NCBI GenBank assembly: GCA_964460835.1
Contig: CAYWQF010000001.1
Location: 1 to 59,087 of the forward strand
DNA from: an uncultured Candidatus Saccharibacteria bacterium
GTDB lineage: Bacteria; Patescibacteriota; Minisyncoccia; Phycocordibacterales; CAIZLB01
Reading direction: 5' to 3'
DNA length: 59,087 nucleotides
Both the position numbers and the translations under genes were made by a program. The notes under the pieces were generated by a model that did not search any database, had not been told where the DNA came from, and saw nothing but the letters and a program-made list of their open reading frames with translations. This document shows positions 27,161 through 32,193 of this stretch, piece by piece. Each line of letters begins with the position of its first letter. Within the stretch, counting starts at the first letter, position 1.

Positions 27161-29116
27161 ATGAATAAAAAAATATCAAACGCGTCTGCGCGTTCATCGT
27201 CTACTGGCGGTGTAAAAAAGACATCATCAATTAAAAAAACGCATAAGTCTGAGTCTCATAAGTCTGCATCAAATGCGCATAAGACTGCGTCACACAGTTC
27301 TGCGGCTCATAGTCACAGTCCTATTTTGCAATCACCTTCAAAGTCAGCGTTAGCTGCCTCAGCAAACGCTGTGTCACATCCTGCACTTCGAACTTTCTCT
27401 GCACCAAAGCCATCTTACGGTGGTTCAAATAGTTATGGTCCAAGATCTGGCGGCGCATCTCATGGCGCGTCACGAGGAGGTTCATCATCTTACGGTGGTT
27501 CTAGTTCATCAAGAGGCGGTTCTTCTTATGGCGCATCACGTTCTGGTGGCTCTTCATATGGTGGCTCTTACTCATCACGATCTAGTGGAGGATACTCTGG
27601 TGGAGCTAGTGCTGGTGGTTACAGTTCACGAGGCGGTTCATCATCATACGGTCATTCAAGATCAAGTGGTGGTTACTCTAGTGCACCGCGTTCTGGTGGA
27701 TCATCATACGGATCACAGTCCGGTGGTTCTTCTTACGGCGCTAGTGCCGGCGGATACAGTTCACGAGGCGCTTCGTCTTATGGCCCTTCACGATCTGGTG
27801 GCTCATCATACGGTGCATCACGTTCAGGAGGTTCATCATATGGCTCACGAGGAGGTTCTTCTTATGGCGCGTCACGGTCCGGAGGCTACGGCTCACGAGG
27901 CGGTTCATCTTCATCACACGGTGGATACGCTCGTGGCGGTTCAGCTGGTATGGTACGAGGAGGTGGCGGACGAAACAAAGGTCAGTACATAGATGTAAAT
28001 CGTTTTATAAATAAAATAAAAGAACACGATGGTCACGCTTCAGCTGAAGCGGCAAAAGCTGCGGCTCCAAAGCCAAAGCATACATTCAATGATTTTAATA
28101 TCGCTGAAGATATTAAGAAGAGAATTGCGTTAAAAGGTTTTGTGACTCCAAGTCCAATACAAGATGGTGCTATTCCTTACATCATAGAAGGTAAAGACGT
28201 AGTCGGTATTGCCAACACAGGTACAGGTAAAACAGCGGCTTTCCTTATTCCTCTAGTAAATAAAGTAATAAATAATCCAAAAGAAGAAGTGCTTATCATG
28301 GCACCGACTCGAGAGCTTGCAATACAGATAGAAGAAGAGCTTTTGGTGTTTATTAAAAATACAAAAATATATTCTGTATGTTGCGTTGGAGGTGCTCATA
28401 TACGAAAGCAAATGTCAGAACTTAGATATTTCAACAACTTCGTTATCGGTACTCCGGGCCGTCTAAAAGATCTTGGCGAGCGAAAGTGTATTGATTTTTC
28501 AAAGTTTACAAATGTTGTACTCGATGAGGCTGACAGAATGCTAGATATGGGATTCATCGCTGATATGCGTTTCATGCTTGGTAAAATGCCAAAGACAAGA
28601 CAGACTCTTTTCTTCACAGCGACAATGTCAAAAGATATTGAAAAGCTTATTCATGAATTCTTGAACAATCCTATAACTGTATCTGTAAAGACAGGTGATA
28701 CTTCAAAGAGTGTTGATCAAGATGTAGTGCGAGTAGAAAGAGGTGCGTCAAAGATAGACAAGCTTCACGCTCTACTTTCTGATACAAAAGAATTTAATAA
28801 AGTGCTTATATTCGGTCAGACAAAGAGTGGTGTTGAAAGACTCACCGAAGACCTTATAAAACTTGGTCATAAAGCAGGTTCTATACATGGTGACAAAAAC
28901 CATTACCAGAGACAGAAAACGCTAAAGAATTTCAAAGATAATCTTATAAACATTCTTGTAGCGACAGATGTAGCTGCGCGAGGTTTGGATATCGCCGATG
29001 TATCTCATGTGATCAACTATGAGCTACCTATGACTTATGAGGACTATGTACACCGAATCGGCCGAACAGGCCGTGGTGGTAAGCTGGGTAAGGCACTGAC
29101 TTTCGTGGCGCATTAG
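27161..29116 (+). CDS. DEAD-box ATP-dependent RNA helicase with ~270-aa N-terminal Ser/Gly/Tyr/Arg low-complexity region
   Basis: Q-motif region (GFVTPSPIQ), motif I ANTGTGKTAAF, Ia PTRELA, II VLDEADRMLDMGF, III FTATM, VI HRIGRTGRGG. Confidence 0.9.
   Translation: MNKKISNASARSSSTGGVKKTSSIKKTHKSESHKSASNAHKTASHSSAAHSHSPILQSPSKSALAASANAVSHPALRTFSAPKPSYGGSNSYGPRSGGASHGASRGGSSSYGGSSSSRGGSSYGASRSGGSSYGGSYSSRSSGGYSGGASAGGYSSRGGSSSYGHSRSSGGYSSAPRSGGSSYGSQSGGSSYGASAGGYSSRGASSYGPSRSGGSSYGASRSGGSSYGSRGGSSYGASRSGGYGSRGGSSSSHGGYARGGSAGMVRGGGGRNKGQYIDVNRFINKIKEHDGHASAEAAKAAAPKPKHTFNDFNIAEDIKKRIALKGFVTPSPIQDGAIPYIIEGKDVVGIANTGTGKTAAFLIPLVNKVINNPKEEVLIMAPTRELAIQIEEELLVFIKNTKIYSVCCVGGAHIRKQMSELRYFNNFVIGTPGRLKDLGERKCIDFSKFTNVVLDEADRMLDMGFIADMRFMLGKMPKTRQTLFFTATMSKDIEKLIHEFLNNPITVSVKTGDTSKSVDQDVVRVERGASKIDKLHALLSDTKEFNKVLIFGQTKSGVERLTEDLIKLGHKAGSIHGDKNHYQRQKTLKNFKDNLINILVATDVAARGLDIADVSHVINYELPMTYEDYVHRIGRTGRGGKLGKALTFVAH
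27420..27960 (+). repeat. degenerate tandem coding repeats (GGSSYGASRSGG-type units)
   Basis: Repeated ggtggttc(a/t)tc(a/t)ta(c/t)gg...cg(a/t)tc(t/a)gg units can be seen by eye. They translate to an SYG/SRSGG-rich tract. Confidence 0.7.
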
Positions 29117-29435: not shown

Positions 29436-30164
29436 ATGAATGCAAAACAAACGCCGAAGCTCGCGGCAGCAATCACTGAGCACCAGGAGGCCTTTGAAAA
29501 TCTCCTCACGACAGAAGAGGCACAAGCTGCTATTCGTGACCCTCGCGGGTTCATCGCAGCGGCTTGTGAGGCTTGGAAAGTCCGGCTGAACAAGACTCTT
29601 GTTTTCAACGAACAACTCACCGACTGGCGCCACTTCTACCGTGAAGTCTTCAGCTTCACTGACACAGAGTCAATCAACCCGACTTTGCCATTAGAAACCA
29701 CCGGCTTCAACTGGCTAGTCGTCGTTCGCAAAGGCCTCACACTCAACAAAGTACTTGAGGTCATGTGTACCAAGTTCAATGTTTATAGCTACATCGGCGA
29801 CGACTTGGACAAAGGAGTCCCGACCAACGATCGCACTGCCGACAATGACTACACCATCAGCGTCCGCGACTGCGTTGAAGCTGACGAGGAAAACAAAAAA
29901 CTCTCTGCAAACCAGATCAAGGAAAAGAGAACCATCAGTATGACACTTCTCGAGCGTCTGCTGTTGGAACTCTTCTATTTCTGGGAGACGGGAGGACAGC
30001 ATCTCGACATCAGGAATGTGACGCTCTGTTCAGGTTCGCGCTACTCGGGCGGTGGCGTCCCGAGCGTCTGTTGGGACTCCGACAGCAGCAAGGTCAGCAT
30101 CGGCTGGTATCACACTGGCTATTCCGACGGCGATTTGCGGGCTCGTGAAGCAGTTGTCGGGTAA
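29436..30164 (+). CDS. DGR target (variable) protein
   Basis: 242-aa ORF, GC-rich, with no signal peptide. Its last ~40 codons (GSRYSGGGVPSVCWDSDSSKVSIGWYHTGYSDGDLRARE) form the variable repeat matching the template repeat. Confidence 0.75.
   Translation: MNAKQTPKLAAAITEHQEAFENLLTTEEAQAAIRDPRGFIAAACEAWKVRLNKTLVFNEQLTDWRHFYREVFSFTDTESINPTLPLETTGFNWLVVVRKGLTLNKVLEVMCTKFNVYSYIGDDLDKGVPTNDRTADNDYTISVRDCVEADEENKKLSANQIKEKRTISMTLLERLLLELFYFWETGGQHLDIRNVTLCSGSRYSGGGVPSVCWDSDSSKVSIGWYHTGYSDGDLRAREAVVG
30032..30147 (+). other. DGR variable repeat (VR)
   Basis: Ungapped hand alignment with 30505..30620 gives 98/116 identical. Of the 18 differences, 17 are at positions where the other copy has A (14 G, 2 T and 1 C in this copy). 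Confidence 0.85.
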
Positions 30165-30216: not shown

Positions 30217-30504
30217 CAAAATCAATCGCCACCTTGCGTAAGCGGGGTGGCGATTTTATATTGCCTAAATTTTGCCGGCTGTGGATTATTCTTTTAAAAC
30301 TTTTATATAAAATAATGTACAATGTGCAAGGCTAATACAATCGGTTCGTGAGAAATTATGAATATCGATTTGCCATAAGAAACTGCCTATTTTGCTTATG
30401 AGTGAGATAGCATCAGGACTCAAAACTTAGCTGACTTGGATCAGATAACTCAAGCGATTTTGAAAAAGGTCACTGGTGTATATAGACGGTGAAAGGTAGC
30501 ATAG

Positions 30505-30620
30505 AGGTTCGCGCTACTCGGACGGTAACGTCCCGAACGTCAATTGGAACTCCGACAACAGCAAGGTCAACATCAATTGGTATAACACTGACAATTCCAA
30601 CGACAATTTGCGGGCTCGTG
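30505..30620 (+). other. DGR template repeat (TR)
   Basis: Non-coding copy. An in-frame stop at 30497-99 lies just upstream and there is no start codon. It is rich in AAY codons (GSRYSDGNVPNVNWNSDNSKVNINWYNTDNSNDNLRAR) exactly where the VR differs. Confidence 0.85.
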
Positions 30621-30707
30621 CAGAAGTTTCGACAAAATAAGAGCGTAAGAATAACATCCAGCGTTCTTATTTTTTTGCCAATTTTTTATCTATATTTTTA
30701 AACCTAC

Positions 30708-31049
30708 TCATCTGAGATATTTTTCCCAACCAGATGTCATTTTAGAAATTTCCTGTAATTTTTCTTGAATAGCAATATATTTTCTTTGTTCTATTATTTT
30801 TAGATCGCCAGGTACGCGGCACAAATGCTTAACTATTTCTATATGTATCCTGAGCTCTCTTATGATGACGAGTTTGTTTTTTCTACTTGAAAGTGAAGAC
30901 TCTAGACTTAAACCAAGACAATCAAGCGCAGACTTTTCAATTTTCTGCCATATTCCAAATCTGTTCAATTTGGATATTTTAGTACCAGTTTTATATATTT
31001 CCTTATATAATTCAGTGACATGAAAAACTACGGGAGCAACAGTGGAACC
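30708..31049 (-). CDS. four-helix-bundle protein (23S rRNA-IVS / DGR Avd-like accessory protein), start unresolved
   Basis: ELYKEIYKTGTKISKLNRFGIWQKIEKSALDCLGLSLES resembles the EIYKLTKKFPKEE(K/R)(Y/F)GLxSQ(I/L)RRAAxSIxxNIAEG core of this family. There is no ATG/GTG/TTG between the homologous region and the ORF-track ATG at 31250. An ATG at 31107 becomes in-frame if the C9 tract loses one base. Confidence 0.6.
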   Translation of the reverse strand, partial: GSTVAPVVFHVTELYKEIYKTGTKISKLNRFGIWQKIEKSALDCLGLSLESSLSSRKNKLVIIRELRIHIEIVKHLCRVPGDLKIIEQRKYIAIQEKLQEISKMTSGWEKYLR

Positions 31050-31053
31050 TTGA

Positions 31054-32193
31054 GTCGTCGCGGGGGGGGGTAGAGTTCTGATTTTTAAAGATATTGTTTG
31101 TGTCCATAATTTATTTGATGCTTGGAATGAGTTTAAGCGCGGGAAGATTAAAAAGCAAGATGTACAAGAGTTTTTGTTGAATTTAGAGGATAATATTTTT
31201 AAATTACAAAAAGATCTTTTGGACAAAAAGTGGGAACCAGACCCATACAAAGCCTTTTATGTTCGTGACCCAAAGCTTAGACATATACATAAAGCTTCTG
31301 TCAGAGACAGAGTATTGTATCAAGCTGTATATAGAAAGTTGTATGGTGCTTTCGATAAACATTTTATATATGATTCATATTCTTGCAGGAGCGATAAAGG
31401 GTTACACAAAGGTTATAGACGGTTAGAACTGTTTATTAGAAAGTCTACAAAAAATTATACTATGACATCTTATGTACTTAAATGTGACATAAGAAAGTTT
31501 TTTGATTCGATATCGCACGATAAACTTTTTAGTTTGATTTATAAAAAGATAGTCGATCAAGATATTTTACAATTGGTTAAACAAATTCTCGACAGTTTTT
31601 CTAAAAATGAAGGAGTCGGCCTACCTCTTGGAAATGTTACTAGCCAGCTATTTTCAAATATTTATTTAAATGAACTTGACCAATTTATTAAACACAAATT
31701 GAAGGTAAAATATTATGCCCGTTACTGTGACGATTTTGTAATAGTAAATTCAAGCGAGGAAAAATTGGAGTATTTTATAAAGCAGATTGATTATTTTCTT
31801 AAAGTAAACTTGAGGGTGAACCTACATCCTAAAAAAGTAATCATAAGAAAAGTCAGTCGCGGTATTGATTTTTTAGGTTATATATCTATGAGGAGTCATT
31901 CTTTACTGCGGACTAATACAAAAAAGAGGATTATAAAGAAAATAGATAGACTCGTATTTGAAGGTGGCCGTGAAAAATTGCAACGATGTTTGCCGTCCTA
32001 CCTAGGTATTTTGAAGCATACTCATGGCAATAAAATTGCGGATATTATTTATAAAAAAATAAAGCCAATATTTGTAGAAGAAATAAATATGTATGAGAGA
32101 ATGTTTAAAAGTATATATTTAGCATTAGAAAAATATCATCTCAAAATATCTAGTTTGTCTGTTACGCAGTCAGATATTCTGCCAAAAAAGTAG
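31054..32193 (+). CDS. DGR-type reverse transcriptase (open frame from 31054; start unresolved)
   Basis: FKDIVCVHNLFDAWNEFKRGKIKKQDVQEFLLNLEDNIF is a typical DGR RT N-terminus and lies upstream of the ORF-track start at 31174. Other motifs: CDIRKFFDSISHD, GLPLGNVTSQLFSNIYLNELD ((I/L)GxxxSQ) and YARYCDDFVIV (YxDD). The ATG at 31020 is one frame off, separated by the G9 tract. Confidence 0.85.
   Translation, partial: VVAGGGRVLIFKDIVCVHNLFDAWNEFKRGKIKKQDVQEFLLNLEDNIFKLQKDLLDKKWEPDPYKAFYVRDPKLRHIHKASVRDRVLYQAVYRKLYGAFDKHFIYDSYSCRSDKGLHKGYRRLELFIRKSTKNYTMTSYVLKCDIRKFFDSISHDKLFSLIYKKIVDQDILQLVKQILDSFSKNEGVGLPLGNVTSQLFSNIYLNELDQFIKHKLKVKYYARYCDDFVIVNSSEEKLEYFIKQIDYFLKVNLRVNLHPKKVIIRKVSRGIDFLGYISMRSHSLLRTNTKKRIIKKIDRLVFEGGREKLQRCLPSYLGILKHTHGNKIADIIYKKIKPIFVEEINMYERMFKSIYLALEKYHLKISSLSVTQSDILPKK
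31062..31070. repeat. G9/C9 homopolymer at the junction of the divergent RT and Avd-like frames
   Basis: The block cggggggggg was read directly. It is a conspicuous homopolymer in this AT-rich stretch. Confidence 0.95.

Follow-up and report, generated by a model that had tools for sequence, protein, structure and literature searches.

A proposed frame switch at the shared start region of avd and reverse transcriptase in a Patescibacteria diversity-generating retroelement

Introduction

How can a diversity-generating retroelement (DGR) carry two intact enzyme genes that are both cut off from their start codons at the same short run of G? This question is raised by a DGR in a 59,087-nt stretch of DNA (the window) from an uncultured Candidatus Saccharibacteria bacterium, contig CAYWQF010000001.1. 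The two genes encode the reverse transcriptase (RT) and the accessory protein Avd. They face each other head to head, and a G9 homopolymer lies where their 5' ends overlap. A preliminary description of the window offered two explanations, a homopolymer sequencing error or a slippage switch of the whole mutagenic machinery. The regulation of DGRs, and the means by which a cell keeps a useful variant once it has been made, are standing questions.

The reading favoured here is a slipped-strand DNA contingency switch that would turn Avd and RT on and off together. The window would hold an OFF allele, one contraction away from ON. From the sequence comparisons reported below, this reading is judged somewhat probable. 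The narrower claim, that the tract is a real, conserved and frame-determining feature of the family, is held with high confidence.

Results

The G-run and the broken reading frames

The run at 31062-31070 is the sole G/C homopolymer of at least 7 nt in the window, and the runner-up is a single G6. Our own estimate from base composition (G+C 39%) gives about 0.05 such runs for a window of this size. The tract occupies codons 15-17 of RT and codons 14-16 of Avd.

The preliminary description had the RT frame open only from 31054, with no start nearby, and this is borne out. The frame opens past a TGA at 31051-31053, and its first in-frame ATG, GTG or TTG is the TTG at 31174. The public RT gene call (P0001, 339 aa) begins at that TTG, 51 codons short. 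A start there would remove about 30 N-terminal residues that are conserved in all homologues. The ATG at 31020 is in the -1 frame relative to RT and reads MKNYGSNSGTLSRRGGG. As had been claimed, it runs into a TAG just past the G-run (31071-31073), forming a 17-aa leader open reading frame (ORF) at 31020-31073.

On the minus strand, the ATG at 31107 is one frame off Avd and yields a 31-aa ORF (31012-31107). The accompanying claim, that Avd lacks a canonical start near its homologous region, stands in part. Between the tract and the Avd domain the frame has no ATG, GTG, TTG, CTG or ATT; in-frame TTGs do occur far upstream, at 31250 and 31226. Their use would add 60-70 residues antisense to RT, and no homologue supports a start at either position.

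Removal of one G mends both genes. With G8, the ATG at 31020 is joined to the RT frame and the ATG at 31107 to the Avd frame at once, as had been worked out by hand, and the products are a 390-aa RT and a 132-aa Avd in place of the 17-aa and 31-aa peptides of G9. The N-terminus of the repaired RT fits the family pattern M..GGG..F..I.S..NLF.AW. The tract has the features of a contingency locus: its repeat unit is not a multiple of three, it is located in the 5' coding region, and a change of one unit toggles between full-length and truncated product.

An alternative genetic code was also considered, with TGA read as sense so that GTG 31042 could start RT through the TGA at 31051. It was rejected. 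Code 11 gives dense coding in the window, where two of the long ORFs are 1,667 and 1,228 aa in length; the standard code applies. The stops of 47 long ORFs in the window are 28 TAA, 16 TAG and 3 TGA, so that TGA is rare.

Repeats at the junction across related DGRs

Relatives were drawn from two sources, 80 loci from species-representative genomes and 80 from metagenomes (L001-L160). RT homologues numbered 6,837 at E<=1e-20. The few with a named source are metagenome-assembled genomes (MAGs) of Patescibacteria, as are nearly all of the related genome loci, and the window RT is 44-71% identical to RTs of Patescibacteria MAGs. Many of the homologues begin M...GGG..H..F..I.S..NLF.AW. Avd is divergent and directly 5' of RT in every scorable locus (77/77 genome, 67/67 metagenome). 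The distance between the Avd and RT cores is 11-80 nt in nearly all loci, with three outliers at 120-383 nt; in the window it is 35 nt.

A simple repeat is present at the junction in 110 of 142 related loci, and 32 have none. The comparison with orthologous DGRs, which had been proposed as a check, accordingly finds a repeat at this site in most of them and a length that varies among relatives. Of the two explanations offered at the outset, these data favour the switch over the error. Of 156 loci, 101 have a G-run of at least 7 nt between the cores, always with G on the RT strand. The density of G/C runs of at least 7 nt is 6.2 per kb at the junction (105-nt windows, 156 loci) versus 0.0115 per kb in the flanks (9 in 780 kb), a difference of about 530-fold. 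GGG makes up only 18% of the glycine codons in RT cores. Tract lengths range from G6 to G14 in the genome and metagenome sets, and a separately fetched relative, L161, carries G20.

Twelve loci have another repeat at the position of the G-run, namely (GA)n, (GT)n, (CT)n or (CCTGT)7 (Table 1). Four of these are ON, with both genes in frame, and eight are OFF. In the (GA)n clade, both genes are restored by a change of one unit. The occurrence of different repeat types at one position argues for selection for mutability as such, and for slipped-strand mispairing of DNA rather than slippage by RNA polymerase or the ribosome. The 32 repeat-less loci are built differently: their start codons either lie within a few bases of each other or overlap, in the form CATG or CATATG, and RT starts just 3-5 codons ahead of the IF..IIS motif.

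Two further observations concern repeats in this family. The RT homologues P0088 and P0115 read GRAGWWWRD in place of GGG, and these proteins suggest a (TGG)3-like trinucleotide stretch in place of the G-run. The nine G/C runs in the 780 kb of flanks of L001-L160 are 7-10 nt long, and may mark further contingency loci or the junctions of second DGRs.

Frame states as assembled

Loci with and without the repeat differ in their frames. Of the 110 loci with a repeat, 34 (31%) have in-frame ATGs for both genes, versus 29 (91%) of the 32 without one (Fisher p 1.2e-9). When ATG, GTG and TTG are all allowed, the figures are 64/110 (58%) versus 32/32 (100%; Fisher p 6.4e-7). Both genes are in frame in loci where the run is interrupted (L003, L029). 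This comparison and the register enrichment described below are the primary evidence.

A concordance test had been tried in that role. Of 26 uniquely scorable loci, 23 have both genes mended by the same +1 or -1 change, as have 11 of 15 loci in a replicate set; the exceptions belong to the type b clade, which is described below. The test (23/26, p=9e-9) was dropped as primary evidence because it is inflated: each ATG is the antisense of a histidine codon of the partner gene, and concordance is therefore partly built in. Within the concordant set, 8 loci are in frame, 8 need +1 and 7 need -1. Scored by the Avd frame over both sets, 20 are in frame, 28 need +1 and 36 need -1.

Head-to-head overlap and antisense register

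The overlap of the two genes had been thought unusual. It proves to be ordinary for the family, with ON-state overlaps of 29-116 nt in related loci. In the 23 loci where ON-state overlaps were reconstructed, all are multiples of 3. The start codons of the window are embedded in the partner genes. The RT ATG (31020-31022) is the antisense of an Avd histidine codon in VVFHV, and the Avd ATG (31107-31105) is the antisense of an RT histidine codon in CVHNLF. The RT N-terminal residues MNNRQ mirror Avd LPIVH. At the junctions of L031, L035, L059 and L076, each ATG is likewise the antisense of the partner's histidine (CAT) codon.

This register is enriched across the family. In 91 of 95 loci, an ATG in the Avd direction has a frame that runs open into the tract and stands in exact antisense register with the RT core; the other two registers have 5 and 16, and the fraction expected from RT codon usage is 0.40. 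In the RT direction, a similarly open ATG in exact antisense register with the Avd core is found in 61 of 95 loci, with 9 and 22 in the other registers and an expected fraction of 0.085. The remaining third of the tract loci form the type b clade. Here the RT ATG lies about 12 nt 3' of the run, and the tract is inside the Avd coding sequence (CDS) and the RT leader. Since each start is in antisense register with the body of the partner gene on its own side of the tract, both genes are in frame only if the tract keeps the register.

Tract length among close relatives and integrity of OFF loci

The closest relatives of the window differ in tract length and state (Table 1). L161 is the in-frame member of this group. 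Its RT reads MQNNRSDRNCGGGGGGGTFEEIVSLHNLF and its Avd reads MQRDNLLKSTPPPPPPAIPVAPIVLHITELYKE, with the G20 run encoding seven glycines in RT and six prolines in Avd. Other close pairs differ in the same way. L066 and L113 are separated by 4 substitutions in 800 nt, and their sole indel is G11 versus G8. L009 (G7) and L017 (G9) both need G8, from lengths on either side of this in-frame value. Both pairs count in favour of a tract that changes length faster than substitutions accumulate. Close lineages with conserved flanks differ in length, ON and OFF alleles both occur, and the genes are otherwise intact, as at a contingency locus.

Contigs that are still closer do not differ. In each of five pairs of contigs that come from different samples and have identical flanks, the two tracts are equally long. 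No length variation was found among contigs with identical RT proteins (P0050, P0025, P0107, P0005), where all pairs are G9.

Loci that are out of frame show no wear. Their RT cores (about 330 aa) are single intact ORFs, and their upstream ATG peptides are intact. A pair consisting of a template repeat (TR) and a variable repeat (VR) was detected in 28 of 35 OFF loci and 10 of 12 ON loci. Mismatches between TR and VR are at A in 522 of 539 cases in OFF loci versus 184 of 189 in ON loci. No TR/VR indel occurs in OFF loci, and the ON set has one gap.

Anatomy of the DGR in the window

The identity of the locus as a DGR rests on an RT, an A-specific TR/VR pair, a target gene with a C-terminal VR, and Avd, all of which are present. 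The gene order is target/VR, TR (+), avd (-), RT (+), which is architecture B3, TR-(avd)-RT, of the candidate phyla radiation (CPR). All scorable relatives (77/77 and 67/67) share the order TR, avd, RT. TR adenines account for 18 of the 20 TR-VR mismatches. The target protein has no match in Pfam or NCBIfam. A hairpin downstream of the VR may be either an inverted repeat of the DGR or the target gene's terminator.

The RT motifs LGNVTSQ and YCDD, which fit the DGR-type forms [I/L/V]GxxxSQ and YxDD, can be read in the translation of the window, and no NCBIfam model reaches its cut-off against this RT. The DivGenRetAVD match covers Avd residues 26-129, and the Pfam bAvd match extends from about 31016 downward. 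Membership in the Avd family is backed by jackhmmer matches to Avd ORFs at the same position in 77 loci.

A TATAAT hexamer precedes the RT ATG. Alignment of upstream regions places (TG)TATAAT-like boxes 9-14 nt 5' of the RT ATG in many relatives, also without a Shine-Dalgarno sequence. A generic promoter scan around the junction gave no more sites than shuffled sequence, and the hexamer is therefore a candidate promoter element supported by the upstream alignment. Its position and the missing Shine-Dalgarno sequence suggest that the RT mRNA is probably leaderless or has a very short leader.

Rfam and tRNA scans of the window gave tRNA-Gln(CTG) at 795-866 as the sole RNA gene, and none near the DGR. 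Directly upstream of the target gene, at 27161-29116 (+), is a DEAD-box helicase. It bears an N-terminal extension, about 300 aa long, with an extremely high content of Ser, Gly and Tyr and with SSYG/GGSSYG-like repeats.

Table 1. Features of the DGR in the window and junction repeats of related loci
Feature	Location	Strand	Description
DGR target gene	29436-30164	+	242 aa, C-terminal VR
Variable repeat (VR)	30032-30155	+	3' end of target gene; ends 9 nt before target stop
Hairpin	30224-30255	+	14-bp GC-rich stem (AATCGCCACC...GGTGGCGATT); 69 nt 3' of VR
Template repeat (TR)	30505-30628	+	124-nt repeat, 20 mismatches to VR
Avd accessory protein, ON-state CDS	30708-31107	-	132 aa with C8; Pfam bAvd 1.2e-8 and NCBIfam DivGenRetAVD 6.8e-12, both under curated cut-offs
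TATAAT hexamer	31005-31010	+	9 nt upstream of RT ATG 31020; no Shine-Dalgarno
RT/Avd ON-state overlap	31020-31107	both	88 nt, antisense codon for codon
DGR reverse transcriptase, ON-state CDS	31020-32193	+	390 aa with G8; Pfam RVT_1 2.4e-21
G9 homopolymer	31062-31070	+	C9 on minus strand; inside the RT/Avd head-to-head overlap; proposed switch
G9 tract	L165		RT 71% identical to window; ATG frame hits TAG directly past the run, as in the window; both genes need G8
G10 tract	L164		RT 68% identical to window; OFF, needs G11 or G8
G9 tract	L162 and L163 (two samples)		RT 63% identical to window; OFF, need G8
G20 tract	L161:2531-2550		RT 63% identical to window; both genes in frame
(GT)n at junction	L033, L038, L079, L114		between Avd core and RT core
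(CT)12 at junction	L045		between Avd core and RT core
(GA)n at junction	L063, L117, L135, L146, L150, L159		between Avd core and RT core
(CCTGT)7 at junction	L115		between Avd core and RT core

Discussion

How the switch would work

The G-run would be a conserved, selected simple-sequence repeat whose length shifts by slipped-strand mispairing during replication. In the proposed scheme, avd and RT start inside each other and are antisense codon for codon across the run. Both start codons lie on the side of the tract opposite their own gene body, so that the two frames are set together by a single tract length. If this length is 3n+2 (G8, G11, etc.), the ATG at 31020 would read into RT and the ATG at 31107 into Avd, supplying the RT-Avd complex for mutagenic retrohoming. 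At G9, ribosomes would terminate after 17 and 31 codons, and target diversification would be shut off. That both products are needed for cDNA synthesis is established for the Bordetella prototype, and would apply here by extension. A slip of one unit would truncate both products and freeze the target sequence, and a later slip would restore activity. We infer that reversible switching happens frequently inside a population, that it takes place on DNA, and that it alternates the target between stabilising and diversifying.

Extended to the group, the proposal is that most Patescibacteria (CPR) DGRs are phase-variable. A hypermutable repeat would have been selected repeatedly at the avd/RT overlap, one slip would toggle the machine, most cells would be frozen while a minority diversify, and the window would be an OFF allele of this system. 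The balance of evidence tilts slightly towards this broader claim.

Several observations weigh against the switch. Identical contigs from different samples share one length, which means that switching of the consensus is not very fast. The lengths, for the window and for every other locus, are those of the assembled consensus of each contig, a level at which minority variants are neither proven nor excluded. A uniform spread over the three frame states is also expected from an unconstrained spacer. Some in-frame ATG, GTG or TTG is available to both genes in 58% of the repeat-bearing loci, so not every OFF call is certain, and L165 has an in-frame TTG just upstream of its tract. The mirroring of start codons and histidine codons accounts for part of the apparent N-terminal conservation, as it does for part of the concordance. 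Finally, leaky decoding through slippage by RNA polymerase or the ribosome could lessen the weight of the DNA state.

Alternative explanations

The alternative that survives best is recoding, which is nevertheless unlikely. Here tract length would be roughly neutral, and a stutter of RNA polymerase or a slip of the ribosome would give a small in-frame fraction, making the tract a low-level throttle. Tracts of 7-14 nt, and the G20 of L161, are long enough to slip, the three frame states have similar frequencies, and identical contigs stably share their state. The ATG frame of the window and of L165 meets a TAG right after G9, in the manner of a shifty stop, from which slipping by +1 leads into the RT frame. 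For Avd, the frame would be mended by a +1 slip on CCC-C, and sites of this type are slip-prone. The repeats found in place of the G-run in relatives, (GA)n, (GT)n, (CT)n and (CCTGT)n, are, however, typical substrates of slipped-strand mispairing on DNA and not of slippage by RNA polymerase or the ribosome. A programmed frameshift should favour one direction from a fixed DNA sequence. The Avd-frame counts given above show no directional bias, DNA length varies, shifts go both ways, and some of the repeats at the site are not homopolymers. RNA polymerase slippage is also best documented on A/T runs and not on G/C runs.

An error of sequencing or assembly in the window contig, with a true tract of G8 and both genes intact, is improbable. 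It would explain why a single-base change mends both genes, and G-runs are error-prone on several sequencing platforms. The out-of-frame condition, however, is seen in about two thirds of the 110 repeat-bearing loci, from many studies. Short-read contigs with SPAdes or MEGAHIT names in the concordant set comprise 5 ON and 8 OFF loci. Loci with di- or pentanucleotide repeats are out of frame as well (8/12), the same length is reproduced in five independent pairs of identical contigs, and L165, the closest relative, is likewise OFF at G9.

Mutational decay is very improbable. The G-run would just encode the Gly-Gly-Gly of RT, a fragile sequence, and the DGR would be an irreversibly frameshifted pseudogene. 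The GGG protein motif is indeed retained even where the run is interrupted (L003), the majority of loci are out of frame, and clade 2 DGRs are of lower activity according to PMC8144416. Against this, OFF loci keep their RT cores and upstream ATG peptides, and match ON loci in the cleanness of their TR/VR pairs. Three consecutive GGG codons with flanking G's are far commoner than the GGG share of glycine codons predicts, and unrelated repeat types arose at the same site. In type b the run is upstream of the RT ATG, and is therefore not kept for the glycine motif of RT.

An untranslated tract deserves equally little credence: RT would start at a near-cognate codon, CTG 31078 or ATT 31081, the G-run would play the part of a Shine-Dalgarno-like element, Avd would use a non-canonical start, and the upstream ATGs would be by-products of histidine codons, which start codons do mirror. 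The run ends 7-10 nt before the CTG and ATT, type b has a true RT ATG about 12 nt 3' of the run, and repeat-less relatives start RT 3-5 codons before IF..IIS; on the other side stand the canonical starts of both genes in 32/32 repeat-less relatives, open ATGs in exact register at 96% versus 40% and 64% versus 8.5% expected, in-frame loci and many database proteins that read M...GGG... straight across, the inability of a C-run to serve Avd as a Shine-Dalgarno sequence, and the lack in the window Avd of any ATG, GTG, TTG, CTG or ATT between tract and domain.

Consequences

If the slipped-strand switch holds, a repeat that gates RT and Avd would be a simple, heritable and reversible answer to the standing questions for the largest cellular clade of DGRs. 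Part of the lower apparent activity reported for clade 2 could stem from it as well. Annotation is affected as well. Gene callers often start these RTs at a downstream TTG, ATG or leucine codon and lose the conserved N-terminus (P0001, P0003, P0005, P0025, P0031, P0050, P0107), and Avd is left uncalled in L161 and L171. The loss of the N-terminus in public RT calls is a systematic annotation artefact of the tract. CPR DGR surveys mis-annotate these N-termini and may score intact elements as defective.

Comparison with known systems

The architecture of the window is a common one. According to Wu et al. 2018 (PMC5758913), B3, TR-(avd)-RT, is found in 90% of CPR DGRs. Roux et al. 2021 (PMC8144416) place Patescibacteria DGRs in DGR clade 2, with lower-than-average activity, which is circumstantially consistent with a switch. 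These B3/clade 2 DGRs are the same element as that of the window, with a target bearing a C-terminal VR, a TR, a reverse-strand avd and an RT. The searched portions of PMC5758913 and PMC8144416 make no mention of a junction repeat, overlapping starts or out-of-frame alleles. No description of a conserved repeat gating both DGR enzyme genes was found in the literature searched, whose coverage did not take in the CPR DGR survey of Paul et al. 2017. Taken singly, DGRs, the B3 architecture and phase variation by repeats are known; their combination in a conserved repeat that gates both DGR enzymes is apparently new.

The DGR of Bordetella phage BPP-1 (avd-TR-brt) resembles that of the window in having RT and Avd, A-specific transfer from TR to VR, and a target whose 3' end holds the VR. 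It differs in that all genes are on one strand, no genes overlap, and neither avd nor brt contains a repeat. Its activity is not known to vary in phase.

Endosymbiont genomes offer a parallel at the level of decoding. Tamas and colleagues reportedly found, in 2008, that transcriptional slippage at homopolymers rescues frameshifted endosymbiont genes. These are likewise small-genome bacteria with homopolymer-broken genes that are otherwise intact. Their poly(A) tracts are scattered over many genes, whereas here a G-run or other repeat is found at one conserved position of one element.

The poly-G/poly-C contingency loci of Neisseria, Haemophilus and Campylobacter include pilC, lgt and capsule genes. 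They share with the window a G/C tract in the 5' coding region, frame shifts of +1 and -1, length differences between strains, and OFF alleles that are otherwise intact. Each of these tracts gates one surface-structure gene, whereas that of the window would gate two overlapping antisense mutagenesis genes in an uncultured phylum with reduced genomes.

In Haemophilus influenzae, a (TA)n repeat in the overlapping divergent promoters of hifA and hifB drives fimbrial phase variation. As proposed for the window, a single repeat between divergent genes toggles both. The hif repeat sets the spacing of the -10 and -35 elements and acts on transcription, whereas the repeat of the window is inside both CDSs and would act on the translational frame; in type b its place is the Avd CDS together with the RT 5' leader.

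Other switchable systems are the phasevarions, with phase-variable mod methyltransferases, and the repeat-mediated switching of mutL in Salmonella. In both, a repeat toggles an enzyme that affects many phenotypes or the supply of mutations, a form of second-order bet hedging that the DGR switch would share. Phasevarions and mutL act globally, on methylation and mutation rate, whereas the switch in the window would control the targeted, template-directed hypermutation of one protein.

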